From NCBI RefSeq assembly GCF_041248615.1, contig NZ_CP158425.1: a stretch of DNA of 64,000 bases, one strand, 5' to 3'. The number at the start of each line of letters is the position of its first letter. Positions within the stretch are counted from its first letter, which is position 1. The position numbers and the translations under genes are program-made. Positions 4,235 through 60,440 of the stretch are shown here, piece after piece. This DNA comes from Escherichia coli (lineage in GTDB: Bacteria; Pseudomonadota; Gammaproteobacteria; Enterobacterales; Enterobacteriaceae). The notes beneath the pieces are model-generated. The model did no database searches. It was not told the DNA's origin and was given only the letters and a program-made list of their open reading frames with translations.

Positions 4235-4272
4235 CGCTCTATCATTGGTAAGGCTGTAAAATGTCTGCAAAA

Positions 4273-4306
4273 GGCCCCATCGGTAAATTGTTGGGGCTTT
4301 TTCTTT
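4273..4306 (+). terminator. rho-independent terminator
   Basis: GCCCCA/TGGGGC stem followed by TTTTTCTTT just after the 3503..4234 stop. Confidence 0.5.
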
Positions 4307-4883: not shown

Positions 4884-4939
4884 CTCCCCTGTTCGTCCAT
4901 TTAGAGTTTTAAGCTGCTTTACACATCACACTCAACTGA

Positions 4940-10346: not shown

Positions 10347-10560
10347 TTTTGTTCTCTTTTTTGGTTGGTTGTTTAACTGCGCTACAACACAACAATACCA
10401 GGTTCGACATTTTTCCTAATAGGTTGCGGAGAAGAAAAAGTAACTTTTTTTAAAAATTTTCCTGAGGCAATACTACTCGATCCGTCCGTTTTAAATCTTC
10501 ACAACAGTGGGCCGTTTTTACGTTTAAGCAAAATAACTGGTTCAGAAGGTGACTCAGAGA

Positions 10561-10575
10561 GAAAAGTTACTTTTC
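10561..10575. promoter_or_regulatory. palindromic motif GAAAAGTTACTTTTC (candidate operator)
   Basis: One of at least 14 copies of AAAAGT(A/T)ACTTTT in intergenic DNA; a second copy at 10435-10451. Confidence 0.5.
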
Positions 10576-11447
10576 CGGTTGTCTGGGCCAGTGATGGGAG
10601 AGTGGCAGGACAGGAATGGCTAAACCGGTGCGGGTCTCTTGTAAGTCGCAGGGGATTCAGGAGATATAGAGGTAAACTGGTACGTTCAGTTTTTGGATTG
10701 AGCCGGGCTTTTGGCCCGGGCTTAAGGAAGCAGAAATTTGAACGAACTGGCAGGTAATGCTTTATGCCGCCGACAGCTGGCCGTCAGTGCTTTGCTGTTC
10801 TGGTTTGACAGTTGGGGGATAACCGGCAGTTAGCCGCTGGCATTCCGCATCACAGAAAGCCCTGAGGTTGCTGAAGACGGACTCCATGAAATCAGCATGA
10901 GCATACGAGTCTACAGGACGTGTCTTGTTATCTTTCATCTTGTTCTCCTCAATCATTATTAAAACCAGCGGATTTAGTTTCTGGCGCTCCATCTGCTGAC
11001 CGGCTTTCCCAGAGAGCAGCGATGTGTCGGGTTCTTTTTCTCATTTTATCGTTTTCATCGGGCCCATCCGGGCGTATAAGAGACCGATTTGGCATGTTTA
11101 GGAAACGTACTGGCGTAATTAAAAGCTGAGGTTGGATTTGGAATAAAAGGATGCTTTTCCCGTTTGTCGGGTCTTTCGCCACCGCTGCACGATGATTCTG
11201 TCAGGCATTCTGCGCCCTCCCAGGCTGCACATCTGGAAACAAGCGTTGGGATGTTCCCTTCCCCTGCTCACCGTAGAAAGATCGGCAAGTCCCGACGGTC
11301 GTTCCGTACGAGCCGGGTCCAAATAATGAATAAATAAAACGCCGCTTCAATTGTATTGACAATAGAAGTCAGGAGGATCATAGTGTCATTCATGGTGCGG
11401 CTTTCGCACCACCGCCCCGGCGGTACCGGGCAGAACTGGAGTACCTC

Positions 11448-12392
11448 ATGAAACTTTCCCGTCAGACGACTTCTGATACTTCTGTTGATGGCCGTTCACG
11501 CGCATATGCCTGGGGCCGTGTCCATTATTTCATTATCGAACATGCACCAATGGCTGAGCTGGTCGCTATTGACGAGCTGCTGGAAAAAGCTGGCTGGAGC
11601 AATGACGGCTGTCCGAACTATGAGAAAGATGACGAGTTTGGTAATGCTGGTTACAGCTGTGGTTACTGGATCGATATTGACAGCGTGGGAAGCTTCAAGG
11701 CTGACTACAAACGTCTTAAGGGGGAGATTAGTGCGCATATCGCCTCAAAGGCGGCAGAGGTGGAGATCCGCGTACTGGACTCGATGTCCGACAAAGAATG
11801 TAAAGATGTTGCCTCGGTGGCATCTACTGTTCGCCGTGACTTACGTACGCAGTCCGAATCGCTTCATTCACTGCGTACAATCGTAACGGTTGATCATTAC
11901 AATCCCTATGTGACCACCAGCCGCCCGCTGAGCATTTCCGCCTGGACACTTATCCACGACTGTCTGAAAACAGGCACCATCAATGACGTCTGTTCACGGT
12001 TGAGTTCATTAATCCTGCACTCTGAAGCCGCGATTGCCCGTTGTAAGGGAAGCTCCGACTACTCTTCGGAACACGCTCAGCTATCGTTTTTTGCTGGTAA
12101 CGACTATGTCACCAGACGCACCCTTGTTGATGCAGCTCACGAAGAGGCTCTGCGAATGAACCGCCGCTTTGATGAACGCATTGCAATGAACGCGGATTCT
12201 GATGCCAGAAGGCTCCAGTGCGAATTCAACCTTAGCAACCATGTCGTACAGCGTAGGACCGTTGAATCTGCTCATATCCAGGCACTCAATGAAGACGTCA
12301 CCCGTTCACAGGCGGAACCACGCTGCCCTGGAAAGCTTCTTCTGAATATGACCAGTCATGAGGAAGTGCGGGACTCACTGAGCGCCTGTTAG
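11448..12392 (+). CDS. hypothetical protein
   Basis: 314-aa ORF heading a short plus-strand gene set. Confidence 0.45.
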   Translation: MKLSRQTTSDTSVDGRSRAYAWGRVHYFIIEHAPMAELVAIDELLEKAGWSNDGCPNYEKDDEFGNAGYSCGYWIDIDSVGSFKADYKRLKGEISAHIASKAAEVEIRVLDSMSDKECKDVASVASTVRRDLRTQSESLHSLRTIVTVDHYNPYVTTSRPLSISAWTLIHDCLKTGTINDVCSRLSSLILHSEAAIARCKGSSDYSSEHAQLSFFAGNDYVTRRTLVDAAHEEALRMNRRFDERIAMNADSDARRLQCEFNLSNHVVQRRTVESAHIQALNEDVTRSQAEPRCPGKLLLNMTSHEEVRDSLSAC

Positions 12393-12488
12393 TCCAGCGA
12401 CACCCCCTGCGGCTCTACTACCGGGCCGCAGTCTGCTCCTGCCCAGATGGTGCCAGTGGTGTAATGAATTTGTTTAATAAGGCTAAGT

Positions 12489-13091
12489 ATGATGAATAAA
12501 GAACAACTAATCGACAAACTGGAACGCGTGGTATGTGGTCAGTACTCCTACGAAATGCAGGAGCTTGCGTATTCGGCCCTCTGCTGCATTAAAGGCACCC
12601 CGGACGACTGCGCTAAGTTCCCTGTTACGCGTCCGCTGCCTGACACCTTAGTGGACGTATGGGACGAAATCGGGCAATACCTTGGCACAGGCAAAGCCAT
12701 TGAAACTCGCAGTTGCGGCGTTTCGCTTCTGCTTCATGGACACTGCTACGATTCAAATCATGTGCTTTACTGGCGCAATGCTGGCGCACTTCCAGCAGCT
12801 TGCGATACGCCACTGGCTGGTGGGTCTCGCAAACTGTTCACCTGCTCAGCCTGTGGAGTGGACGGTCTGGATGAACCACCTGAAACCAGTTGCCACTGCT
12901 GCACAGAGGGGGCCCACTGGGTTGAGAGCAGGCTCTTCACCTCCGGGCAGGCAGACCCTGAAGAATTTAGACCCGTGGCGGTCGTGAAAGAGTGTGCAGG
13001 CTCAACGCCGGATGATCGGCTCATCTGGAGTGTGATTGAACAGCTCAACGGCGAACTGGCGGAAGGCGATAAACTATTTAAGCGACGCTGA
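12489..13091 (+). CDS. cysteine-rich hypothetical protein
   Basis: 200-aa ORF with many Cys/His residues. Confidence 0.45.
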   Translation: MMNKEQLIDKLERVVCGQYSYEMQELAYSALCCIKGTPDDCAKFPVTRPLPDTLVDVWDEIGQYLGTGKAIETRSCGVSLLLHGHCYDSNHVLYWRNAGALPAACDTPLAGGSRKLFTCSACGVDGLDEPPETSCHCCTEGAHWVESRLFTSGQADPEEFRPVAVVKECAGSTPDDRLIWSVIEQLNGELAEGDKLFKRR

Positions 13092-13144
13092 CAGATCACG
13101 GCAGCATTTATAACAGACGAACTCCAGAATAATTTAAAGCAACC

Positions 13145-13501
13145 ATGAACATGAAAAAGCCCAAAGCTGCATTACAGAATGCCATGAAAGAAGATGTGCC
13201 AGCTGTGACACAGATTCAGATGCGATCTACGGTTTCCAGAAAGGTTCGCTATGTAAAACAGGCAAATCGAGAGGGTCTGAAATTATCTGAGTGGATGTCG
13301 CGGCATCTCGACGCTGTCTGTGATACCGCAGATGAGATTCATAAAGGCAAACGCTCAACTCCGGTTGCGCCTGGGAAGATTCCCCCAGAGGTATACCAGG
13401 TGATATACGATCAGTGCGGCGGGTTCGTGGAGTGTGATGCTAATGCCCAGGTTATCTGGGAAGCCTGCCGTAATGCCATTCTTAACGGAGACAAAGGGTA
13501 A
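13145..13501 (+). CDS. putative ribbon-helix-helix DNA-binding protein
   Basis: QIQMRSTVSRKVRYVKQANREGLKLSEWM has a beta-strand then helix pattern; paralog of ORF 38999..39256. Confidence 0.4.
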   Translation: MNMKKPKAALQNAMKEDVPAVTQIQMRSTVSRKVRYVKQANREGLKLSEWMSRHLDAVCDTADEIHKGKRSTPVAPGKIPPEVYQVIYDQCGGFVECDANAQVIWEACRNAILNGDKG

Positions 13502-13531
13502 ACGGCAGGTATCGCCTGTCATTTTACCCTT

Positions 13532-13750
13532 GTGAGGACAATACTGATGAACCATGAGAGCCGAACTGTATACCTGAACACGGCCATTGAGGCCCTGCTG
13601 AAAGCTGAGGCGGCTCTGAACGATCTGGCATTAGCCTATGAGCTTAAACCTGATGAAAAGGCAAGCGCATGCCATCCCAGAACCGGCACACTTTCCACTG
13701 CGTCCCAGGTAAAAAAACTCCGCCGTGTCCTTGAGAAGCAGAAGGTATGA
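13532..13750 (+). CDS. hypothetical small protein
   Basis: 72-aa ORF. Confidence 0.3.
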   Translation: MRTILMNHESRTVYLNTAIEALLKAEAALNDLALAYELKPDEKASACHPRTGTLSTASQVKKLRRVLEKQKV

Positions 13751-15784: not shown

Positions 15785-16158
15785 ATTATATCCTTAAGCC
15801 AACACGAACTGCGCCACAAAAATTAATGTGGCGCAATTTACCATAAACAATAAACATCAGATACCCGTGAAGAGATTTCCCTTTATTTTAAAATTCTTCT
15901 GGAGAAAAAATGATATTTCCAGAAGAAGTCAGCGAAATTCAGAAACGGCCATCACAATGGTGCTGCGCTGACGCTGGCGTTCTGCCTTGCGCTGCCTGCG
16001 GCGATAGATCTATTTTGCGCTGACGTAAGGGCAGTCCTCACGGGTATACCAGCAGCAGCCGCAAGGTTCGGGCCGGGGTTTTCCGGCAAGTCCAAATGGT
16101 TTCATCAAGTCACCTTTTTAATATTTTTAATGGCAAGATACTTCCCTAACACATTGTT

Positions 16159-16470
16159 TTATCGCATATAACGCTGTTGCATAAACAGATACAGATAACC
16201 CTCAGGAGAAAACATGCAAAGGTTATCAGTGATAACCGCATCCAGATACCGAGTGTCAGTCTGTAAACGTTTTATCACCAGAAAATGTGCTGCCGCAGCC
16301 TTAATGCCAGAACTACCGTTTACAACATTATGTATACCCGCTTCGAATAACGAACGAGCATGAATTACCTTTTCCCGGGCCGCTTCGATCTCCGCATTAA
16401 TAACGCATTGCCGCGCCTGGATGACTGCCTCTCCGGTTAAATCGCGGAAATTCATTAGAGATGTGATCAT
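16159..16470 (-). CDS. hypothetical protein
   Basis: 103-aa ORF preceded by the GGTTATT box and TTATAAT. Confidence 0.45.
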   Translation of the reverse strand: MITSLMNFRDLTGEAVIQARQCVINAEIEAAREKVIHARSLFEAGIHNVVNGSSGIKAAAAHFLVIKRLQTDTRYLDAVITDNLCMFSPEGYLYLFMQQRYMR

Positions 16471-16692
16471 GATTAACTCTCCAGATTATGTGGAATCATT
16501 ATAACAACTGGCATCCCGCCACAAATAACCTGAGAAAAATTCTTTGAAATATTCCTATATATAAGGAATTACAGTCGGAAAAGAAACGATGAAATAGCGC
16601 CGACCGCTTAAAATCGATAAATTAAAATGGACGGCACTGGAATGAAAAACTGAAAGTAGTAAGACCGTAATTATCCTTCACGGATGTAAGCT

Positions 16693-16893
16693 TTATAAGA
16701 GGAGTACTGGCAAAGCTTTGCCAAGTACTTCGGCGGTTGTGTCTACGATTTTACGGATGTCATCGATCTGCGAAGGCTTATTCAACACCACCGTAAAAAG
16801 CTCTCCTTCGTTATCAGCCTGCTCGCAGTTTCCGTATCGGCTCCCGTCGTACAGCTGCACAATACGTGACATAGAAGACTTTGTTTGTTTCAT
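16693..16893 (-). CDS. hypothetical small protein
   Basis: 66-aa ORF. Confidence 0.35.
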   Translation of the reverse strand: MKQTKSSMSRIVQLYDGSRYGNCEQADNEGELFTVVLNKPSQIDDIRKIVDTTAEVLGKALPVLLL

Positions 16894-16932
16894 GGCTTTG
16901 CACCTGCTTTTAGGCAGTTTGGTTACTGGTTA

Positions 16933-17157
16933 TCAGAAGCTGGTTTCATGCGCTTCCGGCTGGGACACGAACTGGTATTTGACGCCGCCAGGCACACCTA
17001 CTGCTTCGGCAATAGAGTCGCAAAGCCGCGATAAATCATTTAGTGTCATCGGATATTCAATATCTACAGAATATAAAGCACCTGCATTTTCAGCATCTTC
17101 GATGTTTTTATACTGGGCACTAAATATAGCAATGGTCTGAATTTCGTGGTTATGCAT
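16933..17157 (-). CDS. hypothetical protein, paralog of 23435..23674
   Basis: Shares EYPMTLNDLSRLCDSIAEAVGVPGG with IEHPMTLNDLSLLCESVADAVGAPGG. Confidence 0.45.
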   Translation of the reverse strand: MHNHEIQTIAIFSAQYKNIEDAENAGALYSVDIEYPMTLNDLSRLCDSIAEAVGVPGGVKYQFVSQPEAHETSF

Positions 17158-17211
17158 GAACCGGTCCTTATTAAATTATAAAAGCCACCCGAGAGTGGCC
17201 TGAGTTGAAAC

Positions 17212-17415
17212 TTAAATCTGTGAAGTATTTTTGAGAGATTTTTTGCGATCCAGATGCCGGGCAACAATGGTTCCGATAACAAGTAGCATGATGACCGCAC
17301 TGAAGAAGGTGCTGTCAGGGACGCCCTGGAAAAAATCACTGAAACTGTAAACAATAAAAATCAATGCGCAAAAATAGAAAACGATACGAACATAAGGGGT
17401 AAAAAACATTTTCAT
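17212..17415 (-). CDS. small membrane protein
   Basis: 67-aa hydrophobic ORF. Confidence 0.4.
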   Translation of the reverse strand: MKMFFTPYVRIVFYFCALIFIVYSFSDFFQGVPDSTFFSAVIMLLVIGTIVARHLDRKKSLKNTSQI

Positions 17416-17594
17416 CGGTTGCCTTCCATTCAGGGAGAATTCTCAGTAATTACATCACACCTGAAGAGAAACTATTTTCGTATAAATGAGCATTTTCGAC
17501 ATATCAGAGGGGGGGTTTACTCATAAATGAGGTAGTAAGGGTCACACTTGAGGTGAAAGTTACTTTCCTGGCTGCGAACGAACTATCTCAAATG

Positions 17595-17888
17595 TTAGAG
17601 GTGTGCGTTCGCCTTGAGAGCCTCATGCCCTGAGGAGCTCAACTTGAGCCGATAGTATAAACCTGGCTCCAGATGGCTTGCTGGCTGGCATAACTCCACG
17701 AGGCCGAGCCGGAACAGGACCGGAGAGCTCCTGCACGTCACATCATCAGGATTCCCCATAAACGTACGCCGTTCTCTGGCCCGTCTGAAATTGCCAGAGA
17801 TATCATAGACCGTGCCGGATGCCATCCGTCGTAACACGTAAATCTGTGCCATTGTAAGCTTCTGGGCGGAACTGCTTAAACCTGACAT
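17595..17888 (-). CDS. hypothetical protein
   Basis: 97-aa ORF. Confidence 0.4.
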   Translation of the reverse strand: MSGLSSSAQKLTMAQIYVLRRMASGTVYDISGNFRRARERRTFMGNPDDVTCRSSPVLFRLGLVELCQPASHLEPGLYYRLKLSSSGHEALKANAHL

Positions 17889-18178
17889 ACCTTCCCCTCC
17901 TTATATAAAACAATCCGCCAGCAGCTCGACTGGCGGACAATGTTTGACTGGCAACAGCAAGGACATACTATTTAGTGACAAGTTTGATCTTGGTTTCACT
18001 CATTCGAAGTCGAAACTCCTGAAAACCCTGCTCTACCGCTAACTCCAGCCACTCAACGGGAATGGTATAGCTACAATCAGACCCACCCAAAGCGGCATCA
18101 CAAGCGTAATCCCAGTCCTCATCCTGAACCGCCCCGGGAATCCTGGAGACTAAACTTCCTGAGAAAGAGGTAAACAGG

Positions 18179-18505
18179 ATGACTAAAAATACTCGTTTTT
18201 CCCCCGAAGTCCGTCAACGGGCAGTCCGTATGGTTCTGGAAAGTCAGAGCGAATATGACTCACAATGGGCGACAATTTGTTCCATTGCTCCAAAGATTGG
18301 CTGTACGCCGGAGACTCTGCGTGTCTGGGTTCGCCAGCATGAGCGGGATACCGGGGGCGGTGATGGAGGGCTCACCACCGCTGAACGTCAGCGTCTGAAA
18401 GAGCTGGAACGTGAAAATCGTGAACTGCGCCGCAGTAACGATATCCTTCGCCAGGCTTCCGCTTATTTTGCGAAGGCGGAGTTCGACCGCCTCTGGAAAA
18501 AATGA
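18179..18505 (+). CDS. IS3-family transposase OrfA
   Basis: 108-aa product recognised from memory as IS629/IS1203 OrfA. Confidence 0.9.
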
Positions 18506-19392
18506 TGCCACTGCTGGATAAGCTGCGTGAGCAGTACGGGGTCGGACCGCTATGCAGCGAACTGCATATTGCCCCGTCAACGTATTACCACTGTCAGCAA
18601 CAGCGACATCATCCGGATAAACGCAGTGCCCGTGCGCAGCGCGATGACTGGCTGAAGAAAGAGATACAGCGCGTATACGATGAAAATCACAAGGTATACG
18701 GTGTGCGTAAAGTCTGGCGTCAGTTGTTACGGGAAGGTATCAGAGTGGCCAGATGCACTGTGGCACGTCTCATGGCGGTTATGGGACTTGCCGGTGTTCT
18801 CCGGGGTAAAAAGGTCCGTACGACCATCAGCCGGAAAGCCGTTGCCGCAGGCGACCGCGTAAACCGTCAGTTCGTGGCAGAACGACCTGACCAGCTGTGG
18901 GTGGCTGATTTTACTTACGTCAGCACATGGCGGGGCTTCGTCTATGTGGCGTTCATCATTGATGTGTTTGCCGGATACATCGTGGGGTGGCGGGTCTCAT
19001 CGTCCATGGAAACGACATTCGTGCTGGATGCACTGGAGCAGGCGTTATGGGCCCGTCGACCGTCCGGCACGGTCCATCACAGTGATAAAGGTTCTCAGTA
19101 TGTATCGCTGGCCTACACACAGCGGCTTAAGGAAGCCGGATTACTGGCATCAACAGGAAGTACAGGCGACTCGTATGACAACGCGATGGCGGAGAGCATC
19201 AATGGTCTTTACAAAGCGGAGGTAATACACCGTAAGAGCTGGAAAAACCGTGCAGAAGTGGAACTGGCCACACTCACGTGGGTGGACTGGTATAACAATC
19301 GACGATTGCTGGAAAGGCTGGGCCATACTCCTCCGGCAGAAGCAGAAAAAGCTTATTATGCTTCCATCGGAAACGATGATCTGGCAGCCTGA
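18502..19392 (+). CDS. IS3-family transposase OrfB (integrase core)
   Basis: 296-aa product; -1 frame relative to orfA with a poly-A stretch at the junction. Confidence 0.9.
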
Positions 19393-19434
19393 GTTCACAG
19401 ATAAAACACTCTCCAGGAAACCCGGGGCGGTTCA

Positions 19435-19772
19435 TCCAGTTTTGGATTCATCCCCTGGGCGTAAGCCACAGTATCGCGGGATGCGGGAGAGCCCTCAAGC
19501 TCAGCATTAGTGATCAGGTATACACCATGACTGTGCGCGAGAAGCACTTTTGGCACCAGATGTGTGCTGGCAATTTTTGAGGATGAGGGAAAGAAAACCC
19601 TACCAGCTTTACGCGCCTCTTCTTCAGTCTGTCCCTCAGCGTTAAGGAGGGCTCCCCCCGGATAGCATGCCGGGTCATAGATCTGATCTGCGGTGACCGA
19701 AAACGTTTTTGCGGTGCGAATTTCTTCGATCAGTTTATTAATATCCGCCATTTCAAATACGAGAGTGGTCAC
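19435..19772 (-). pseudogene. N-terminal part of a gene interrupted by IS629 copy 1 (remainder at 17968-18121)
   Basis: ORF 19395..19772 takes its last 13 codons and stop from the IS; removing the IS and one TCC restores an open frame to a stop at 17968. Confidence 0.4.
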
Positions 19773-19776
19773 AGGC

Positions 19777-20124
19777 TTACTCTCCCTCTTCAGTGGACAA
19801 CATCAGATACTTTGTTGCCAGCAGAAGCTCTCCCACATCCTTGAGGGACAATTCAGCTTTGCCTTCTACGGCAAGCTGCAAGCGCTGTCGAATTGCATGA
19901 ACAGAATCTGAAGATAAAGATGCCATTTTGCGCAAAACGGCATTAGCCTTTTCTACAGCAGGATACAGAATTTCTGAGTTGGTATTATCTTCGTCATTAT
20001 CAAAGATAATTTCAGAATCCATATTGATGTTATCTTCAAGCCAGCTTGAAAGCACTTCAAGTAATGACATCACCTTTTCAATTTGCATATCGCCTCCTCT
20101 GTTAATGTGAAACAAATATAACAA
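19777..20124 (-). CDS. hypothetical protein
   Basis: 115-aa acidic ORF with GAGGAGG RBS. Confidence 0.45.
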   Translation of the reverse strand: MLYLFHINRGGDMQIEKVMSLLEVLSSWLEDNINMDSEIIFDNDEDNTNSEILYPAVEKANAVLRKMASLSSDSVHAIRQRLQLAVEGKAELSLKDVGELLLATKYLMLSTEEGE

Positions 20125-20142
20125 AGTGGCTTACCCGGCTAA

Positions 20143-20198
20143 TAACCTGAGCAGAAAGTTTTCGCACTTTGTTTGAAAACAACTTTTCTGCTCAGGTT
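20143..20198. promoter_or_regulatory. inverted repeat (about 17-bp arms) overlapping the GGTTATTAGC promoter box
   Basis: AACCTGAGCAGAAAGTT ... AACTTTTCTGCTCAGGTT immediately upstream of the 19777..20124 promoter. Confidence 0.45.
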
Positions 20199-20603
20199 AA
20201 TGTTAAAGTCGCTGTGTAAAAGATAAAGGGCACTAAAGATGATTTAAGCATCAAACAGACTAAATCGGATTCCGTCTTTTATATCGCTTTTAAAATAGAA
20301 TGAATGAAATATAAATTTAGCGTTTATGATTGAACGCTGTAGAGGTTGATTTATCCAGTGATATTCAGTTTGGGGCCTTAAAAAGGTTTTATTTTGGATT
20401 CGAATTACAAAGGGAGCACCGACATTTTTCTGGGGGCTCCCGCAGAGAAAAAGCGGTGAGGCTATGAAGACGAAGAGGAGGTATTCGACGAAATACTGTA
20501 TGGCCACAGGAGAGCTTCAGCACCCATATCCTGCCGTCTCGCTCGCCTGTAATGATTTCAACATGTACAACGTCATACCACGTAGTTGTATTTCTCACTT
20601 TGT

Positions 20604-43688: not shown

Positions 43689-46109
43689 ATGAAACATCTC
43701 GCTTTTATTACTGCTGTAGCCGGACTCGGTATGTCTGTTCAGGCCCCAGCTCAGATATATGAATCGGCCTTTAAGGACACGAACGGTATTGAGATCCACG
43801 CCCCGTCTTCTCGTCTTATGCTTAATCCGGCATCACCGGTAACTTTGACACTTATTTCAGGTCTTGATCGTTTCGTTAATGTCAAAGTCACGAAAGACAC
43901 TGGAACTGTCATTCTTAATACTACGACTACACGGACGGGTGTATCAGACCGACTAACAGCTGCTGACGGTAGTGAGTTCTACGGCAAAAAAGTAACTTTG
44001 CCTGCTTTGGGTGAAGGCAAATTTGTCGTTCAGATAAACGTGTTAGATCTCAATCAGAAGCCTGTAGCGACCTATAACTATAACTGGCTAATTGATGTCA
44101 CCCCTCCAGCGGCAAATGCTCTTACCGCTAATACTGGTTCTGGCTCTACCGCTGGTGACGTGTGGAAGCTTGGATTAGAGGCAACGGGGCAGTATGACTT
44201 CACCTCTTCGGGCGTAAGTGATGCAAATGGTATTGATAAGGGCCTAATATATATTTACAGGCAGGACGGTAGCCTCTACAGCACTACACAGATGCAGTAT
44301 GACGTATCCGGCCAAAAGATGTACCACACTTACTCTAAGAATTCAGTTAAGGGAACCGGAATACCAGACAGCAACCTGGATGAAGACTTTACTGCAAAAG
44401 TTGTTATCTTCGATAACGCAGGTAATAGCCGAACGCTGCCAACTCAAAAATTTCGCTACGACAACACGCTGGGTGAGATGACACTGTGGGCCGTTCATGA
44501 TCCAAATACGTCTTCCAGCGTCGTACCCGGGGTTTCTAATTATCCGGCTTACAAAGCCGGTATGGTCGTTAACGAAAACCCTATTCGATTAGTCTACCGG
44601 ATCCCAAAATCTAACTACCGTGCTTATTCAGAAGGTGGGCTTCAGTTCATCAATCAATATTCCGCCCCCAAAGAGATAGCTGTAGACAGCACTTATGCTT
44701 ATGTTGAAATGACTCTTCCCTATGGCTCAATTAATGGGGATATGGCTCGTATGGCGAACTTTGGCCAGTGGGGAGGGTATTATCCGTCATACAGCCTCGT
44801 TCTAAACCCATCTGCAAACCAAACGCCTGCATTTGCGGGTACCTGGGTAGATTTCCTCGATGATAAGGGGAACTGGGTTAAGTGGAAGGATTTTGAGAGT
44901 GTGGCTTCATCACGACTGCCAATTAAAATTTCCCGACTTCGTTTTAACGTTGAAGCCCGGCCCTTTGCACAGGAGATCGGCGGTAAGGCGACCTGCACCA
45001 TTCCGGCAGGAAAAACCTCGTGTGAAGCGCCTGAGACGTTTGATATGGCCTTGGGTACCCAGGGCTACAATAGAATCCTTTACTTCGTTCGCAGCATCAG
45101 CAATCCCATTTTGCGGTCTGAGCAATGGATTATGACACGCTGGAACAATAAACAACTGCCGGTAATAAACTCGATATCATATGACGAGACTAACAAGCAG
45201 CTGGATGTACTGGCGTCACTTGAAGGCGATGGTAACTGGTTCGACTCGGTCTCATTGAGGGAATTTTATCTTTCCGATAAGAACACCGGTACCCGGATGT
45301 CACCAACAGGCGTAATCAAATCTCGTATCTCAGGTAACTACACGATTGCTTATGATTTATCCCGTCAGTCTGAAGGAAAATACAACGTTGAGGTCAACAT
45401 CAGGGACTTCTTCCAGAACCAGACCAATAAAACTTTCGGAGAAATTGCTCTGGATAACACTCCTCCGACAGTGGCCATAACATTCGACGGAAAGCCGGTA
45501 AAAGACGATACGGTAGTGTACGGCCTGGAGAACCTCAGGATCGCTCTGGCAGATAATCTGACAACCCCGAGGATAACCCGTCTTCAGCTCGTAGGTGGCC
45601 CCACAGCTGATAACGTTGAGCTTACGTGGTCACCGGCAGGCAAAGATACATACATGCCTGAGTATCCGAGGCTGTTCCCAAATTTCGAACCATCTGAAAA
45701 TTATTCAATTAGCGTAACAGTTGCCGATAGTCAGTCGAATACCAAAACCTATACTCAGAAGTTCAGTTATCTACCGAATAACCTTGTGCAGTTACATAAT
45801 CTACGCACATTGTCGGTCAGTTCACCTCTCAAAACGACAGATGGCGTACCACTTGCGTACCTGTCCACTAACGTTCTGCGTAAGACAAATGGAGAAATTG
45901 CTAAAGGGGTCCAGAACGCAACGCTGACTGTGCGGAAGGATGCAGCCTTCGGTATTAAATTTAATGGGGCACAGGCGGCTCCAGGCGAGTCAGTTGAGGT
46001 GCAAATAGATATGGGCCAGGGGGATAATCTTCTGTTACCCGTTTATCCTTCCGAAAATGGGAAAGTTGGCACCTCAGAATTCATGATTCAGATCGACGAG
46101 TTGAAGTAA
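43689..46109 (+). CDS. large secreted protein, paralog B of the about 800-aa family
   Basis: Signal peptide ending AQA; same conserved blocks as paralogs A and C. Confidence 0.6.
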   Translation: MKHLAFITAVAGLGMSVQAPAQIYESAFKDTNGIEIHAPSSRLMLNPASPVTLTLISGLDRFVNVKVTKDTGTVILNTTTTRTGVSDRLTAADGSEFYGKKVTLPALGEGKFVVQINVLDLNQKPVATYNYNWLIDVTPPAANALTANTGSGSTAGDVWKLGLEATGQYDFTSSGVSDANGIDKGLIYIYRQDGSLYSTTQMQYDVSGQKMYHTYSKNSVKGTGIPDSNLDEDFTAKVVIFDNAGNSRTLPTQKFRYDNTLGEMTLWAVHDPNTSSSVVPGVSNYPAYKAGMVVNENPIRLVYRIPKSNYRAYSEGGLQFINQYSAPKEIAVDSTYAYVEMTLPYGSINGDMARMANFGQWGGYYPSYSLVLNPSANQTPAFAGTWVDFLDDKGNWVKWKDFESVASSRLPIKISRLRFNVEARPFAQEIGGKATCTIPAGKTSCEAPETFDMALGTQGYNRILYFVRSISNPILRSEQWIMTRWNNKQLPVINSISYDETNKQLDVLASLEGDGNWFDSVSLREFYLSDKNTGTRMSPTGVIKSRISGNYTIAYDLSRQSEGKYNVEVNIRDFFQNQTNKTFGEIALDNTPPTVAITFDGKPVKDDTVVYGLENLRIALADNLTTPRITRLQLVGGPTADNVELTWSPAGKDTYMPEYPRLFPNFEPSENYSISVTVADSQSNTKTYTQKFSYLPNNLVQLHNLRTLSVSSPLKTTDGVPLAYLSTNVLRKTNGEIAKGVQNATLTVRKDAAFGIKFNGAQAAPGESVEVQIDMGQGDNLLLPVYPSENGKVGTSEFMIQIDELK

Positions 46110-50383: not shown

Positions 50384-52840
50384 TTATTTTAATTCTTCAA
50401 TGTTAATCATGAACTCAGATCTGCCAGTAAGGCCGGATACAGCAGGGAAAATAGGAAAGCTACGGCTGTCCCCGAGCCCCAAATCCAGTTGAAGCTCTTT
50501 GCTTTCACCTGGCATCGCAGAAACGCCATTTACAGTCACGCCGAATGCAGCGTCCTTACGGACAGTAAGCACTGCGTCCTGAAGCCCTGTAGCGATTGAA
50601 CCATCCTTTTTACGCAGCTGGCTGGCATACAGAACAGCCAGAGCAGTATTGTCAGATGTTTTGAGAGAAGCATTGACAGCTAAGGTTTTCAGATTCTCTA
50701 GCCTGACGAGATTGTTTGGAAGGTAGTTAAATTCGACTGAGCTTTCTTTAACGTTGTTCATCTCATCTTTGGCCTGAACTGTGAGAGTGTATGTTTCGCC
50801 TTCATTAAGAGACGGAAAGATCTTGGGATAATTAGGTGCATACAGGTTGTTTCCCAGATTCACCCAAGACAATTCCACCGCATCAGAAACAGGGCCACCG
50901 CGAAGAGTCATACGGCTTAAGGATGGTTTAGTTAGAGCATCGGTGAGCTGTATACGGACGTTCTCCAGCCCATATACTGTTACGTTTTTGCTGATCGGTT
51001 TTCCTTCGTAGCTAATACTTACAGATGGTGCTGTATTATCAACGACAACTGTTTGATAAGGGAGGTTACCGGTATTGTTGAATGTATCTTGGGCATTAAT
51101 CACCACGTTATAACTGCCTTCTGGTACCTCTTTCATGTTGAACTCATACGTGTAGTTCCCAGACGCCATATTTCTACCTGTTTGTTTGCCGGTTACGCTT
51201 ATTTCTGCGTTGTTACGGTTTTTATCTGACAACCAAACTCGATTTACATAAACATGGTCGAAATATGAACCATCTCCAGGTTGATTCACGTAAACCTGGA
51301 GAATGTTGGTGGTTTCATTGTAATCAAATCCAGTGACGGAGGGACCCAGTGTATGCCAGGCTATATTCTCCCATATAGGGGCAAAGAAGGTTGCTTCGGT
51401 GGTTGACCTTACTTCATAGCCACTATGAAGATAACCGGTAGTGCCATTTATAATATCCTGGGGCAAAGAGACGGTACAGGTTGTTGAGCCAGCTGGAATA
51501 CTGCATGTTGCTCCGCCAGTGATTTTTTGATCATATGGCCTGGCCTGTACATTGAATCGGATATTAGTAAGTTTTATAGGCATATCAGATGCCTTGAACA
51601 GGTTCCAGTTTACGCTGTTGAACCATGTTCCATCAGCCTTTTGTCGTTCTATGGGTGAACTTCCCCAAGCCGGACTCTTTACAGAGGCAGGATCCCAGTT
51701 GAGCCAGCTGGCATACTGACCAAGATCTCCTCCAGACCATTGATATGTATTCACAGGTCTATAGTAGTTTCCATCTAAGGCACCCTGTGGCAGCTTAACT
51801 TCCACGTAGACATAGGTGGCATCTTCGGAAAGGACCTGTACTCCGCCATAGTTATTGGTAATGCTCATGCCACCATTTCGATATGGCTTCCAGTTAGTTC
51901 TTGGGATACGTATAACCAACTTGTAGGGGTTTTCCAGCACTGTAAGGCCTCGTTTAAACGGGACGTATCCCGAAGAAATGCCGGGTACAACACTGGTGCT
52001 TACACGTGAGTCATGAACTGCAAATGGCGTAAATTCTCCCATTTGATCGTCATATAAAAACCGCTGGGGAGGAATGTTAAGCGTATTTCCTGCCAGGTCC
52101 GTAACGATGAAATTGAAGGTGAATTCTTCATCAAGATCACTTGAGGGCATGCCAGCCTGGGTGTTCATATCTTTAATCCACGGATAGAACGCACGTTTAT
52201 TGGCTGTGTCATAACTCAGGTTATTGTCGGAGACCACAGAACCATTACTTCGTTTAATGACAAGACGGATCTTGTCAATTCCACTAGCATCCTCAATACC
52301 GTCTGCAAATATAGAAAACTGGCCACTACCGCCTCGGCCCAACTCCCAAAGTGGCCCAGAAAGTACCATGTCGTAACCTGCGTTTTGACTCGGATAAATA
52401 CTCTTATAGCGTGGAGGAGTTGTATCAACGATGAAATGATAAGTAGATGTGCTCACTACAGTCTGGCGAATATCCAGAGTTTCATTGACTACAGTAAAGG
52501 TCCCTTCTCCGAGCGCCGGTAGAACCATATCCTTTCCATAGTATTCTGTTCCATCGGCAGCAACGATACGATCTGCAACGCTCGTTTTGGTCGAGACGGA
52601 GGAATACATAACCTTTTTATCGCTGTCTCGTGTGACCGTCACTCGCTCGTACCGATCAAGACCCGATATCAAGTTCAGAGTCAAAACACCAGCGGGATTA
52701 AGATATGTTTGTGTTGCAGGTTTGATATTCCGAACAGCCTTATTGGTATCTGTAAATGAGTAGCTAAATACCTGAGCATGTGCCGAAGATACAGTAGCAA
52801 GGGCAGTTGCAACCATGCAGCCAATTAGAGTTTTACGCAT
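50384..52840 (-). CDS. large secreted protein, paralog C of the about 800-aa family
   Basis: Signal peptide ending AHA; C-terminal LTVRKDAAFG block. Confidence 0.6.
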   Translation of the reverse strand: MRKTLIGCMVATALATVSSAHAQVFSYSFTDTNKAVRNIKPATQTYLNPAGVLTLNLISGLDRYERVTVTRDSDKKVMYSSVSTKTSVADRIVAADGTEYYGKDMVLPALGEGTFTVVNETLDIRQTVVSTSTYHFIVDTTPPRYKSIYPSQNAGYDMVLSGPLWELGRGGSGQFSIFADGIEDASGIDKIRLVIKRSNGSVVSDNNLSYDTANKRAFYPWIKDMNTQAGMPSSDLDEEFTFNFIVTDLAGNTLNIPPQRFLYDDQMGEFTPFAVHDSRVSTSVVPGISSGYVPFKRGLTVLENPYKLVIRIPRTNWKPYRNGGMSITNNYGGVQVLSEDATYVYVEVKLPQGALDGNYYRPVNTYQWSGGDLGQYASWLNWDPASVKSPAWGSSPIERQKADGTWFNSVNWNLFKASDMPIKLTNIRFNVQARPYDQKITGGATCSIPAGSTTCTVSLPQDIINGTTGYLHSGYEVRSTTEATFFAPIWENIAWHTLGPSVTGFDYNETTNILQVYVNQPGDGSYFDHVYVNRVWLSDKNRNNAEISVTGKQTGRNMASGNYTYEFNMKEVPEGSYNVVINAQDTFNNTGNLPYQTVVVDNTAPSVSISYEGKPISKNVTVYGLENVRIQLTDALTKPSLSRMTLRGGPVSDAVELSWVNLGNNLYAPNYPKIFPSLNEGETYTLTVQAKDEMNNVKESSVEFNYLPNNLVRLENLKTLAVNASLKTSDNTALAVLYASQLRKKDGSIATGLQDAVLTVRKDAAFGVTVNGVSAMPGESKELQLDLGLGDSRSFPIFPAVSGLTGRSEFMINIEELK

Positions 52841-54620: not shown

Positions 54621-54841
54621 CCCTCAAATATCATTCTAAATAACTGCACCAGGATATCATGAGCGTAATTAATAGAATTCTTCATAACCGGGGTTTTCAG
54701 TTGAGTTTGCGGACTCTTTACTTTGCGGTTTCTCACCCTCTAGTTGAGTATCCCTGACAGGCTTGGATTTACCCATGCTCCTCTGAAAGGTATCCATAAC
54801 AAACTCAATATCTTCTTCTGGCAGGCTGGTGGGTTGGTTGC

Positions 54842-55909
54842 TCATAGGACTTCCTCTTGTTGAATACGTTCGGCGTACAGGATGCGAACCGAAACGGTCG
54901 TGTTTTCAAACTCGTTCTCAAAAACGTCCATCCATTCCGTCCGGAATTCTTCCCCCAAAAGGTTATCGAGCCCCTGAAGAGATAATGGAAGAACGGCTGC
55001 TAGAGATCCCCCGGCTGCGAGATGAGATGCAGCTGCCTGGAGATGCCGCCTGGCCCGGTTATCGGCAAAAGGTGGGTTCATCACGACATAATCAAACTTC
55101 TTCTGTTGATTAGACTTAGACCATGTGAGGAAGTCAGCTTCTGTCGTATCGTATCCCTTAGCCCGGGAGATAAGGCAATTCAAAGTATCAAGCTCGATGC
55201 CAGTAACGATCACACCGGCAGGGAATGATTTAAGCAAATCCGCATGGCCAATATTAGGCTCCAGGAGGGTATCCCCTTCCCCTGCACCAAGCAGGGAAGA
55301 TACATATTCGCTGATTCGGCAAGATGAAGGGTAAAACTGATGCGATACAATATCAGGCATCTCCCCTATCTGGCCGATGTAACGAATAACCTCACACGGA
55401 TCATAGGAAAATGTCACATCGTATTTTGTTACTGTTGCCCCTAAGAACCGAAGGGTGTCAGCGGCAACACTCGAAGATTTGCGTTCGGCGAGAGACCCTA
55501 AAGATGTCCAGCAACTCCATTTATTGTCCCCGTCATTTTTAAACATCAGTTCAGAAAGCTGCATCCGGGTATCAAAGTCGATGCACTGCTTAAGTACAGG
55601 GAATGCCTCCAAAGATTTCTTGCTATGAGCCATACGGTCGGCAGGTAATGCCAGCGGTACGATAGCTGATAAAATATTGTTAAGCCGCTCGGCGATATCA
55701 GGGTGGACGTCAATATGCATTGATCCATTTTTGTAAACCCTGAAACGAATACTGTTGCCATCGATGCAGATCCATTTTCTGAACCCCTCATGTTCGACCA
55801 ACGCCTCAACCAATGATTTGGTGTTATGGATCGCCTTCACCTGTTCGCCACGGAAGAATGCGCATATAACGCGGAGCTCGCTCAGCGGTGAAATGCCAGA
55901 CTCTTTAAA
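54842..55909 (-). pseudogene. C-terminal methyltransferase domain of a gene split by IS629 copy 2
   Basis: EPNIGHADLL, TGIELD and VVMNPPF motifs; no ATG start (track start is GTG); frame open upstream to the IS boundary. Confidence 0.55.
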
Positions 55910-55967
55910 ATCCTGAACCGCCCCGGGAATCCTGGAGACTAAACTTCCTGAGAAAGAGGTAAACAGG

Positions 55968-56294
55968 ATGACTAAAAATACTCGTTTTTCCCCCGAAGTC
56001 CGTCAACGGGCAGTCCGTATGGTTCTGGAAAGTCAGGATGAATATGACTCACAGTGGGCGGCAATTTGTTCCATTGCCCCAAAGATTGGCTGTACGCCGG
56101 AGACTCTGCGTGTCTGGGTTCGCCAGCATGAGCGGGATACCGGGGGCGGTGATGGTGGGCTCACCAGCGCTGAACGTCAGCGTCTGAAAGAGCTGGAACG
56201 TGAAAATCGTGAACTGCGCCGCAGTAACGATATCCTTCGCCAGGCTTCCGCTTATTTTGCGAAGGCGGAGTTCGACCGCCTCTGGAAAAAATGA
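55968..56294 (+). CDS. IS3-family transposase OrfA
   Basis: 108 aa, nearly identical to 18179..18505. Confidence 0.9.
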
Positions 56295-57181
56295 TGCCAC
56301 TGCTGGATAAGCTGCGTGAGCAGTACGGGGTCGGACCGGTATGCAGCGAACTGCATATTGCCCCGTCAACGTATTACCATTGTCAGCAACAGCGACATCA
56401 TCCGGATAAACGCAGTGCCCGTGCGCAGCACGATGACTGGCTGAAGAGAGAGATACAGCGCGTATACGATGAAAATCATCAGGTGTACGGTGTGCGTAAA
56501 GTCTGGCGTCAGTTGTTACGGGAAGGAATCAGGGTGGCCAGATGTACAGTGGCGCGCCTCATGGCGGTTATGGGACTTGCCGGTGTTCTCCGGGGTAAAA
56601 AGGTCCGTACGACCATCAGCCGGAAAGCCGTTGCCGCAGGCGACCGCGTAAACCGTCAGTTCGTGGCAGAACGACCTGACCAGCTGTGGGTGGCTGATTT
56701 TACTTACGTCAGCACATGGCGGGGCTTCGTCTATGTGGCGTTCATCATTGATGTGTTTGCCGGATACATCGTGGGGTGGCGGGTCTCATCGTCCATGGAA
56801 ACGACATTCGTGCTGGATGCACTGGAGCAGGCGTTATGGGCCCGTCGACCGTCCGGCACGGTCCATCACAGTGATAAAGGTTCTCAGTATGTATCGCTGG
56901 CCTACACACAGCGGCTTAAGGAAGCCGGATTACTGGCATCAACAGGAAGTACAGGCGACTCGTATGACAACGCGATGGCGGAGAGCATCAATGGTCTTTA
57001 CAAAGCGGAGGTAATACACCGTAAGAGCTGGAAAAACCGTGCAGAAGTGGAACTGGCCACACTCACGTGGGTGGACTGGTATAACAATCGACGATTGCTG
57101 GAAAGGCTGGGCCATACTCCTCCGGCAGAAGCAGAAAAAGCTTATTATGCTTCCATCGGAAACGATGATCTGGCAGCCTGA
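56291..57181 (+). CDS. IS3-family transposase OrfB
   Basis: 296 aa, nearly identical to 18502..19392. Confidence 0.9.
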
Positions 57182-57223
57182 GTTCACAGATAAAACACTC
57201 TCCAGGAAACCCGGGGCGGTTCA

Positions 57224-57847
57224 ATCCACCCTTAATTTCTGCCAGGGGTATTTAGACGGCTCGCAAACTCCGGTAGTGATCATGCGGGTGGAGAACCCAA
57301 AAGCTTTGTTTGTCTTGTGACTGCGGCTCAGAGACTGGAAGACGTCGTAAACCCTTTCTTTAATAAATTGATTGCGGTCATTAAGCAAAGCAACGACTGT
57401 GCCCACTACAGCGTCAGCTGTGAAATCAGGGATCACCTGAGGCGGCATAATATAACGGTCGGCCGTAAACTGCTTATCCCATTCGTTACGTTTGGCATCC
57501 GACATGATAGGCAAAACATCAGTGAGTGCCATAACGCGTTTCCAGTATTCTGATCTCAGAGCGTTTTCTGCGAACAAGGCATCCGCTTCTGAGATGCTGT
57601 GGTTGTAGCCTGAGAGATAAGAATAAAGTTTCTGGTGATTGTGGGTTTTGAACTGGACAGCCATGAGTTTCAACAAGCAGAGTTCATCATTATAGGACTC
57701 AACAAGATCCGCGATAATGCCGAGCTCTTTGCGCATATCTGGAAGAAATGTTTCAGGAGAGCTAACCACCAGGCTATGAGAGGTTGTTAAAGCCAGTACG
57801 CTGTGACCTGCATTATCGGGTTTAGCTTCAGAATCAAGAGATGACAT
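57224..57847 (-). pseudogene. N-terminal part of the gene split by IS629 copy 2
   Basis: ORF 57221..57847 takes its stop codon from the IS terminus. Confidence 0.5.
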
Positions 57848-57978: not shown

Positions 57979-58005
57979 AAAAAAAAAGCCCCGCATAAAC
58001 GGGGC
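57979..58005 (-). terminator. rho-independent terminator
   Basis: GCCCCG-CATAAA-CGGGGC stem with a 9-nt T-run on the minus strand, downstream of the ParB-like gene. Confidence 0.6.
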
Positions 58006-59606: not shown

Positions 59607-60440
59607 TTGACTCGACATCTCAGACACATGCCGATAATCAAATGGGCTGGTGGAAAAACGAAACTGATGCCTTTCATCAGCCATCACTACCCACACGATC
59701 ATAGTTGCCGGTGGGTAGAACCCTTTATAGGCGGTGGTGCCGTTTTTCTGAACATGTTTGCACAAAATGCATTGCTTGCAGATAGCAATCCAGACTTGAT
59801 CAACCTATACAGGACTATTCAAAGACAGAAAACTAACTTTATAAATCAGGTCCAAAACTTGGCGGATAAAACCTTTGTCGAAAAGGACTACTATGAGATG
59901 AGGGACCGTTTCAACAAAACCTGTATTTCTGGTCAATCGCTTCAAAGAGCGGCTTTGTTTTACTCCCTGAATCGCCTGGGCTATAACGGTATGTGCCGCT
60001 ATAACTCAGAAAGAATCTATTCAGTGCCGTGGGGGAAACATACAGAACTGAAGCTTGACCTCAATAAAATAGACTACCTTTCATTTCGTCTTTCAGGTAT
60101 TGAACTGATCACCGCTGGTTTTGAGGAGACTCTGGCCGCAACCGGTGAAGGAGATCAGATTTACTGTGATCCGCCATATGACAAAACAAGCAAAACTAGT
60201 TTTGTCAGTTACGATGGTAAACCGTTCAGCCAAAGCGACCACGTGCTGTTAGCAAATATGCTCGTTGACGCTCACAGAAAAGGCGCTGCTGTTGCGATAT
60301 CAAATAGCCTGACATCATTCACTTTGGGCCTCTATGAAGAGCGTGGATTCGTCATACACAGACTCAGCGCTTACCGATCCGTAGGAAGTAAGCCGAATAC
60401 ACGGAAAACGGAAACAGAAATACTGGCCGTGCTGAAATAG
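59607..60440 (+). CDS. Dam-like (D12 class) N6-adenine DNA methyltransferase
   Basis: IKWAGGK and DPPY motifs. Confidence 0.8.
   Translation: MTRHLRHMPIIKWAGGKTKLMPFISHHYPHDHSCRWVEPFIGGGAVFLNMFAQNALLADSNPDLINLYRTIQRQKTNFINQVQNLADKTFVEKDYYEMRDRFNKTCISGQSLQRAALFYSLNRLGYNGMCRYNSERIYSVPWGKHTELKLDLNKIDYLSFRLSGIELITAGFEETLAATGEGDQIYCDPPYDKTSKTSFVSYDGKPFSQSDHVLLANMLVDAHRKGAAVAISNSLTSFTLGLYEERGFVIHRLSAYRSVGSKPNTRKTETEILAVLK

Follow-up and report, generated by a model that had tools for sequence, protein, structure and literature searches.

The last 64 kb of plasmid p14408_M1 (IncHI2) from Escherichia coli NRZ14408, all 64,000 nucleotides of which are referred to here as the window, contain two minus-strand open reading frames with an insertion sequence (IS) between them. 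This arrangement raises the question whether they are two genes with a mobile element in the middle or the halves of one gene broken by transposition. A preceding sequence-only reading had favored the second view, proposing that a methyltransferase gene of about 563 codons, located just downstream of a ParB-like gene, was recently inactivated and that its frame is restored if the element is removed together with one copy of the flanking tetranucleotide. Positions of all relevant features are collected in Table 1.

Table 1. Features of the interrupted locus (positions within the window)
Feature	Position	Strand	Comment
Conserved 58-aa ORF	54669..54845	-	ATG overlaps the methyltransferase stop (ATGA)
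3' fragment of the DUF4942-methyltransferase gene	54842..55909	-	codons 209-563 + stop; rest of DUF4942, middle region, C-terminal methyltransferase domain
Target-site duplication ATCC, left copy	55910..55913	.	single ATCC here in the intact relative
IS3-family insertion sequence, IS629/IS1203 type	55914..57223	+	1310 bp; assigned by boundaries, inverted repeats, ORFs
IS orfA	55968-56294	+	overlaps orfB; programmed -1 frameshift joins both
IS orfB	56291-57181	+	overlaps orfA
Target-site duplication ATCC, right copy	57224..57227	.	single ATCC in the intact relative
5' fragment of the DUF4942-methyltransferase gene	57224..57847	-	codons 1-208; has a PGAP entry of its own ('DUF4942 domain-containing protein', WP_192473884.1)
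Terminator-like GC-rich hairpin followed by T9	57988..58005	-	between ParB-like gene and methyltransferase start; consensus scan only
ParB-like gene, 387 aa	58095..59258	-	directly upstream of the methyltransferase gene; HTH_ParB

Both the borders of the element and the ATCC on its two sides, as initially proposed, were borne out by the sequence. The element begins with TGAACCGCCCCGGG at position 55914 and finishes with CCCGGGGCGGTTCA at position 57223; its termini are TG...CA and its inverted repeats are imperfect (first 14 bases identical, 23/25 matching). PGAP describes it as an IS3 family transposase with programmed frameshift and AL1L pseudoknot, and Pfam domains HTH_Tnp_1, HTH_21 and rve (DDE) are listed for the transposase product. 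Copies 100% identical to it abound in E. coli, on chromosomes as well as on plasmids, and are named only 'IS3 family', while the PGAP name for copies with ~99% identity is 'IS1203 family'. The element is assigned here to the IS629/IS1203 isoform group, even if its own PGAP label is merely 'IS3 family'. Target-site duplications of IS629 are 3-4 bp long (PMC3271280), and the 4-bp ATCC fits this size. A second IS copy is present in the same window and differs from the first one at 21 positions. Both copies were inserted at (A)TCC, which is an observation on two cases only.

The minus-strand ORF at 57221-57847 encodes 208 amino acids and ends in a TGA made up of the final three IS bases (57221-57223) read on the opposite strand, while the downstream ORF (54842-55840, 332 aa, 'methyltransferase' WP_251002580.1 in PGAP) has no ATG and begins at an internal GTG, both in agreement with the sequence-only reading. 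In silico excision of the IS with one ATCC gave an uninterrupted minus-strand ORF of 563 codons containing ...KLRVD-FKESGISPLSELRVICAFFRGEQ-VKAIHN..., and excision of the IS alone, or together with 3 or 5 further bases, led to a stop within ~10 codons. A search with the excision product revealed the uninterrupted homolog: in plasmid pMS8345A the gene is one 1692-bp CDS for a 563-aa 'DUF4942 domain-containing protein' (WP_032084800.1), and neither the excised gene (1692 bp) nor the 2187 bp that include its flanks have a single mismatch to this locus. Since the product is identical to an intact gene, the restored frame is not a chance one.

The possibility that a DUF4942 protein and a methyltransferase are naturally encoded by separate genes, with the IS merely lying between them, could be suggested by PGAP, where the two fragments have individual WP accessions and carry no pseudogene flag, and by the existence of short proteins having only the N-terminal region. 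Such proteins make up 11 of the 150 best representatives (328-430 aa), and two stand-alone phage proteins (247 and 271 aa) share the fold of this region. For the locus studied this possibility is refuted by the identity to the single CDS of pMS8345A. Besides, the interruption lies within DUF4942 (aa 96-290) rather than between domains, the stop of the upstream ORF is derived from the IS, the downstream ORF lacks ATG, and both close and distant homologs are all fused; its probability is thus practically negligible.

Homologs with 23-99% identity span both halves at all levels of divergence. Neither a lack of such homologs nor separate genes in intact relatives, named beforehand as grounds against the sequence-only reading, was observed. 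One set of homologs comprises 26 clusters of 518-570 aa, except one 430-aa entry named partial, and 34 full-length homologs belong to phages. Along its full length the protein is matched by PHROG 6263 ('DNA methyltransferase', E 9.5e-113). Of the 150 best representatives 139 reach a length of 490 aa or more, and NPP(F/Y/W) lies near the C-terminus in 136 of the 139; the family as a whole comprises at least 2005 clusters at 50% identity. In complete E. coli genomes 271 records contain the 3' part of the gene, and at identity of at least 95% the gene was found in 1109 PLSDB plasmids from Escherichia, Salmonella, Enterobacter, Klebsiella and others. Of the 40 PLSDB matches listed, 38 are single and uninterrupted over 1692 bp, the rest being p14408_M1 itself and a 10% partial match. 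The gene is part of the IncHI2 backbone and remains at least 98.8% identical across genera. Comparison with a 70%-identical homolog gave pN of 0.13-0.23 and pS of 0.69-0.78 in all three gene segments, which points to purifying selection. Carriers of the gene are conjugative plasmids, phage-plasmids and early regions of prophages, usually with other orphan methyltransferases beside it.

The exact IS junction is unique to p14408_M1 among complete E. coli genomes and PLSDB. The idea that the insertion is private had nevertheless to be softened, since 7-9 further contigs with the identical allele came to light in an exact-protein look-up; the accessions of these other assemblies were not found in any paper. 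The same junction with its flanks is reproduced with 0 mismatches over 6.6 kb in GCA_014857585.1, GCA_014840025.1, GCA_014857655.1 and run SRR11454060. This bears on the suspicion that the IS was placed here by repeat collapse or misjoin while the actual plasmid has an unbroken gene, a suspicion which may be fed by deposition of the p14408_M1 record as linear, and by the multi-copy nature of the IS in E. coli with its second copy in the same window. However, the independent assemblies agree, the two copies of the window are distinguishable by their 21 differing positions, and the element is bordered by a perfect duplication whose 4 bp agree with the size known for IS629, so that an assembly error is extremely improbable.

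Knock-out of one 563-aa IncHI2 backbone gene, encoding an N6-adenine-type methyltransferase, by an IS629/IS1203-type element is therefore considered a highly probable explanation of the locus as a whole. In this scenario the element transposed into codon 208/209 and duplicated 4 bp (ATCC), cutting the protein within DUF4942, so that residues 1-208 are followed by the stop supplied by the IS, and the remaining 355 codons with the whole catalytic domain are stripped of promoter, ribosome-binding site and start codon. Because of this loss the disrupted gene is almost certainly null. The event is also recent, as had been claimed, because no other mutation has accumulated: there are 0 mismatches over 2187 bp, the duplication is perfect and the IS is intact. 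Some expression of the C-terminal 332 aa, starting at the internal GTG, may persist. However, prediction on the minus strand near 55800-56100 gave no outward promoter from the IS, and most of the conserved N-terminal region is missing in the fragment.

The gene has been interrupted more than once. At least four other independent IS disruptions were registered, at codons 55, 224, about 267 and 300, and the elements responsible include IS1203, an IS3-family copy in opposite orientation and IS1A. They occupy different codons and have different duplications, so a site-specific insertion hot spot was rejected. One can suppose that loss of the methyltransferase is positively selected in some hosts, as it may be costly or attract modification-dependent restriction, and that the IS is adaptive. 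The independent disruptions by different elements fit this supposition, as may a 90% cluster of N-terminal fragments with 91 members of various lengths, many of which are named 'partial' by NCBI; promiscuous methylation of the M.EcoGIX type is known to sensitize DNA to EcoKMrr (PMC7736820). On the other hand, about five disrupted copies were found among 271 E. coli records, a count to be taken as a lower bound, and the gene otherwise shows high conservation across genera and is under purifying selection. In other plasmids ISs also reside in the neighboring backbone (dam gene, intergenic DNA, the 58-aa ORF), which fits random insertion into dispensable DNA. Adaptive loss is thus unlikely, and the case is an ordinary IS knock-out.

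Assignment of the reconstructed protein to methyltransferases, made originally from the sequence, was corroborated by Pfam models MTS (24.9 bits against a cutoff of 23) and N6_Mtase, by an invariant NPPF motif and by the fold. DUF4942 (PF13708) is matched with 79.9 bits at a cutoff of 25. Motif I (LEPNIGHADL) lies at about aa 423-432 and motif IV (NPPF) at aa 486-489; AdoMet-binding motifs I-III precede motif IV, and the fold is of the class I Rossmann type. Across 22 sequences there is no variation at residues E425, G429, E447, D467, F468, N486, P487 and P488. Motif I of the IncHI2 protein differs from the family consensus LEPSAGQGGL. Based on this one can assume that the C-terminal ~160 aa form an S-adenosylmethionine-dependent amino-methyltransferase domain of N6-adenine type with the order I-II-III-IV and catalytic NPPF, and that the conserved N-terminal ~370 aa, including DUF4942, presumably give substrate recognition. 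No target-recognition domain of known type is recognizable in the protein, and no solved structural relative was found for the N-terminal region. Most likely the enzyme would methylate DNA of its own element, for protection from restriction by the host or as an epigenetic mark. The substrate may also be RNA rather than DNA, since the best structural match is METTL5, an rRNA m6A methyltransferase. PADLOC defence-system models gave only weak generic methyltransferase matches (E from 1e-5 to 4e-7). A literature search on the DUF4942/methyltransferase family found no member with a described activity, substrate or target motif, and in at least two papers mentioning DUF4942 the term serves as an annotation label only; search for IncHI2 in combination with methyltransferases or anti-restriction yielded nothing on this gene.

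The location immediately downstream of the ParB-like gene was confirmed, with a terminator-like hairpin between the two genes. The ParB-like protein matches PHROG 1033 (ParB-like, 3.3e-28), and TIGR00180 below its cutoff; its gene is distinct from the main partition genes parA/parB of the plasmid, which are located elsewhere (record 15974-18228). A ParB-like homolog with 43.6% identity occupies the same position in a diverged plasmid, and the pairing with the methyltransferase is kept in IncHI-like relatives at 47-70% identity. On its other side the methyltransferase gene is followed by the 58-aa ORF, which is present as an ORF of 56-58 aa also in relatives at 54-70% identity. It is probably co-transcribed with the methyltransferase gene and for this reason would be exposed to polarity of the IS. 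On a larger scale the methyltransferase gene sits between repHI2 and a RepB-family replication gene adjoining Tra2, ~50 kb from the Tra1 end. It is tempting, though rather doubtful, to see here an uncharacterized methyltransferase family of mobile elements, always paired with an orphan ParB-like gene on IncHI-type plasmids and acting as a new plasmid-establishment or anti-restriction methylase. Within this idea the ParB-like protein could recruit the enzyme in cis, or else the enzyme, like M.EcoGIX, could have a promiscuous or single-strand activity.

Among the main vehicles of mcr-1, mcr-9 and ESBL genes are the IncHI2 plasmids, whose backbone encodes at least four methyltransferases. Since the disrupted plasmid persists in several assemblies, this conserved backbone gene is dispensable for plasmid maintenance. 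With one allele disrupted naturally and hundreds left intact, the methylation motif and anti-restriction or transfer phenotypes could be approached at low cost. If the family does represent a novel methylase, the knock-outs on near-identical plasmids (p14408_M1 and at least four others) would be ready isogenic controls. RefSeq proteins WP_192473884.1 and WP_251002580.1, in turn, are the halves of one IS-disrupted pseudogene, and their annotation should be corrected.

The inserted element shares the following features with the IS629/IS1203/IS3411 isoform group: a length of 1310 bp, TG...CA ends, overlapping orfA and orfB with -1 frameshift and AL1L pseudoknot, rve (DDE) transposase, a duplication within 3-4 bp and multi-copy, widespread occurrence in E. 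coli. The mechanism does not differ from other cases of insertional inactivation by this group, and only the target, a methyltransferase gene of the IncHI2 backbone, is particular. Compared with gamma-type N6-adenine DNA methyltransferases (M.TaqI, M.BseCI, CamA, type I HsdM) the target protein has no C-terminal target-recognition domain, because only ~75 aa follow NPPF; its core is preceded by a conserved region of ~370 aa instead, and sequence similarity to these enzymes is below significance (E 0.57). Like M.EcoGIX and M.BceJIII, it would be an orphan adenine methyltransferase of conjugative plasmids with a ParB homolog nearby (Fomenkov et al. 2020, PMC7736820). Those enzymes are single-strand-specific, with a proposed role in shielding incoming plasmid DNA from restriction, and belong to the beta-class with DPPY motif, their genes being part of the leading region and always oriented the same way with respect to oriT (PMC7736820). 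In the IncHI2 enzyme, in contrast, the catalytic motif is NPPF and motif I precedes motif IV. The gene lies between repHI2 and the RepB-family gene. Membership of the enzyme in the M.EcoGIX/ParB-methylase family was rejected on account of the different class and motif. The rRNA m6A enzymes of METTL5/PH1948 type, finally, are single-domain proteins of ~200 aa acting on ribosomal RNA, with METTL5 requiring TRMT112, and unlike the IncHI2 protein they have neither the N-terminal DUF4942 region nor association with mobile elements.

The insertion element (IS3 family, IS629/IS1203 type) found in the DUF4942-methyltransferase gene has inverted repeats that are perfect over the first 14 bases and match at 23 of the first 25, and is transcribed in the direction opposite to that of the gene. 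Its bounds, the ATCC flanks, the stop codon provided by the element and the lack of an ATG downstream had been described in the sequence-only reading, and direct inspection of sequence and ORFs found this description exact. In-silico removal of the IS together with one ATCC gave a single 563-aa ORF, as had been claimed, while removal of the IS alone, or with 3 or 5 extra bases, led to a stop within approximately 10 codons. Many IncHI2 plasmids lack the IS but match its flanks, the matching span being shorter by exactly 1314 bp. An uninterrupted 563-aa homolog, which the same reading had proposed to look for, is WP_032084800.1, encoded by one 1692-bp CDS in the IncHI2 plasmid pMS8345A. The excision product is identical to this locus at 1692 of 1692 bases of the gene, and over 2187 bp with flanks there are 0 mismatches; pMS8345A has the ATCC once at the insertion site. 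Therefore the two ORFs together make up a single gene, which was split by a simple transposition with a 4-bp duplication; this fits the 3–4 bp reported for IS629 (PMC3271280). Both fragments (228915–231920 in NZ_LT599829.1) have ordinary protein accessions from PGAP, the NCBI annotation pipeline, and carry no pseudogene flag. The annotation is hereby corrected: two RefSeq “proteins”, WP_192473884.1 and WP_251002580.1, are one pseudogene. The 90% cluster of N-terminal fragments contains 91 members of varied length, many of them named “partial” by NCBI.

Table. Features of the disrupted locus and of its surroundings (window positions)
Feature	Position	Strand	Remarks
Split gene, both fragments	54842–57847	−	
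IS element	55914–57223		1310 bp; begins TGAACCGCCCCGGG, finishes CCCGGGGCGGTTCA; direct reading
IS ORF, 108 aa	55968–56294	+	ORF listing; overlaps 296-aa ORF
IS ORF, 296 aa	56291–57181	+	ORF listing; overlaps 108-aa ORF
ATCC copies abutting IS	55910–55913 and 57224–57227		direct reading
208-aa ORF (5′ fragment)	ATG at 57847	−	TGA made by last three IS bases; ORF listing; PGAP “DUF4942 domain-containing protein”, WP_192473884.1
332-aa ORF (3′ fragment)	55840–54842	−	internal GTG start; PGAP “methyltransferase”, WP_251002580.1
58-aa ORF	54669–54845	−	ATG overlaps methyltransferase stop (ATGA)
Terminator-like hairpin, strong	57988–58005	−	GCCCCGTTTATGCGGGGC then T9; between ParB-like gene and methyltransferase start
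“Site-specific DNA-methyltransferase”, 416 aa	29492–30742	−	
“Methyltransferase”, 253 aa	41474–42235	+	
Dam-family enzyme	59607–60440	+	TIGR00571, 228 bits
Ig-like proteins, about 800 aa	35746–38136; 43689–46109; 50384–52840	−; +; −	
Second IS629/IS1203-type copy	18125–19434	+	TCC duplication

The reconstructed protein matches Pfam DUF4942 at aa 96–290 (79.9 bits, cutoff 25), so that the IS cuts within this domain, and the “methyltransferase small domain” MTS at aa 474–532 (24.9 bits, cutoff 23), with weaker matches to N6_Mtase and Eco57I. That one methyltransferase had been split agrees with its relatives: homologs of 26 clusters (23–99% identity; 518–570 aa, except one 430-aa entry named partial) cover both halves, and invariant residues occur in both. 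Those of the catalytic part are E425 and G429 (motif I), E447 (motif II), D467 and F468 (motif III) and N486, P487 and P488 (motif IV), and among those of the N-terminal part are W102, W123, R158, R165 and L173-S174-x-x-H177-x-T179-N180. The profile of the N-terminal 368 aa collected 2005 clusters (50% identity) at E ≤ 1e-3, 434 of them at E ≤ 1e-30; among the best 150, 139 reach a length of 490 aa or more, with NPP(F/Y/W) present within the last 140 residues in 136 of these 139. The full length also matches PHROG 6263, “DNA methyltransferase” (E 9.5e-113), and full-length homologs are encoded in 34 phage records. Comparison with a 70%-identical homolog gave pN of 0.13–0.23, far under the saturated pS of 0.69–0.78, and this was so for each of three segments (N-terminal fragment, middle, methyltransferase domain). 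The finding also points to a widespread, uncharacterised methyltransferase family with natural knock-outs on clinically important plasmids.

Modelled at full length with AlphaFold2 (pLDDT 80, pTM 0.71), the protein matched solved structures only via its C-terminal Rossmann domain. The matches are amino-methyltransferases, mainly N6-adenine: METTL5 (19.3), M.BseCI (18.5), PH1948 (18.1), M.TaqI (18.0; 26% identity over 151 residues), type I HsdM subunits (~17) and CamA (16.2). Sequence alignment with M.TaqI is weak (E 0.57), and motifs I, II and IV line up in it. The N-terminal region modelled alone reached pLDDT 79; its sequence matched none in the PDB, and its only resemblance in a viral library was to two stand-alone phage proteins, both uncharacterised. 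The protein therefore consists of a gamma-like adenine-type methyltransferase core that follows a large conserved region of unassigned fold. We infer that this N-terminal region recognises the substrate.

Judging from the sequence, we conclude that the disrupted allele is almost certainly null: two thirds of the protein are missing from the 208-aa product, the IS is transcribed oppositely, and the 3′ fragment has neither an ATG, nor a promoter predicted by consensus scan, nor most of the conserved N-terminal region. The same features uphold the inactivation proposed earlier, and a polar effect of the IS on the 58-aa ORF can be inferred as well. The finding is real and was correctly interpreted, but the event is an ordinary knock-out by an IS.

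At 100% identity, the window corresponds to the final 64 kb of NZ_LT599829.1, the 238-kb IncHI2 plasmid p14408_M1 of E. coli NRZ14408. It starts at the end of Tra1; repHI2 lies ~6 kb from the locus on one side, and a RepB-family replication gene with Tra2 transfer genes on the other, across the ends of the record. The 3′ part of the gene was registered in 271 records of 269 complete E. coli genomes, nearly all plasmids, and the whole gene (≥95% identity) in 1109 PLSDB plasmids (Escherichia 374, Salmonella 336, Enterobacter 264, Klebsiella 62, and others). Uninterrupted 1692-bp matches made up 38 of 40 sampled PLSDB rows, the remainder being p14408_M1 itself, in two pieces, and one 10% partial. 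This is a core gene of the IncHI2 backbone. Among complete E. coli genomes, and likewise in PLSDB, NZ_LT599829.1 alone has the exact IS/gene junction. Looked up by exact match, the 208-aa fragment nevertheless turned up on 9 contigs of other public assemblies, and the 332-aa fragment is also on record for a 283-kb contig. The 9 contigs belong to GCA_014857585.1 (238,070-bp contig), GCA_014840025.1 (CP061908.1, 120 kb), SRR11454060 and GCA_014857655.1; in the four of them that were compared the disrupted allele is identical, with 0 mismatches to the window over up to 6.6 kb. Given these identical flanks in several assemblies, the allele represents either a small lineage or a repeatedly sequenced strain; derivatives or a circulating plasmid lineage could also account for it. 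Since the disrupted allele persists in several assemblies, maintenance of the plasmid does not require the gene.

The gene was independently disrupted in at least four other IncHI2 plasmids: by IS1203 at codon 300 (ETEC1706), by IS3-family copies at codon 55 (23CRST035) and, in opposite orientation, codon 224 (EC20017429), and by IS1A at approximately codon 267 (PEC209). In neighbouring DNA, elements occupy dam (pMADE-1), the 58-aa ORF (pCFSAN061772_02), the interval between the ParB-like and methyltransferase genes (pCFSAN061771_02) and, in ET881 and M160133, the very 3′ end of the methyltransferase gene. A site-specific hot spot is ruled out by the differing positions, and the frequency of about 5 disrupted copies among 271 records, a count that is not exhaustive, is compatible with random insertion into dispensable DNA. 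Chromosomes and plasmids of E. coli widely carry copies 100% identical to the IS, which disrupt a great variety of genes. The two copies of the window differ at 21 positions (98.4% identical), which means that neither arose freshly from the other. The second one is flanked by a 3-bp duplication (...CATCC/IS/TCCAG...; flanks inspected over 17000–20200); both copies lie at (A)TCC targets. Removal of the second copy with one TCC gives a ~157-aa minus-strand ORF (MADINKLIEEIR...) directly downstream of a DUF957 gene; the remnant is annotated by PGAP as hypothetical protein WP_251002579.1.

The position downstream of a ParB-like gene, pointed out earlier, is retained in IncHI-like relatives of 47–70% identity, whose module comprises dam (opposite strand), the ParB-like gene (365–385 aa), the DUF4942-methyltransferase, a 56–58 aa ORF and an 818-aa Ig-like protein. 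The ParB-like protein is not the partition ParB of the plasmid, which sits with ParA elsewhere. Because of the terminator-like hairpin between them, the ParB-like and methyltransferase genes may not be organised as a simple operon; the 140 bp that precede the methyltransferase ATG gave no consensus promoter. The small ORF keeps its position in relatives of 54–70% identity, and no Pfam match was found for the 58-aa product. Three Ig-like paralogs are present in the window (DUF4165, Big_3_2 and Big_3_3 in relatives), and one of them is conserved next to the module in diverged IncHI-like plasmids. With three further methyltransferase genes on the backbone, the plasmid has four orphan-looking methylases.

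In more distant relatives (28–35% identity) the ParB-like neighbour is absent, and the gene resides either in the early regions of prophages, next to a C5-methylase, a PAPS-reductase-like gene, DnaT and RusA, or on other mobile DNA. In one distant relative (L014, 28% identity; 4075–5829, 10093–13710) it directly follows the gene for a protein of 584 aa whose N-terminus is Cys-rich and which gave no Pfam hit but looks CoiA- or nuclease-like; type IV CRISPR-Cas genes (Csf3, DinG-like helicase, Csy4) lie near. The methyltransferase and the 584-aa protein could form a restriction-modification-like pair on a plasmid. The overall setting would be typical of orphan methylases protecting or marking mobile DNA. 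The best-studied analogue, M.EcoGIX, methylates the single strand as it comes in and thereby guards an IncI plasmid during entry; as a leading-region enzyme of the beta class with DPPY it is rejected as a relative (PMC7736820).
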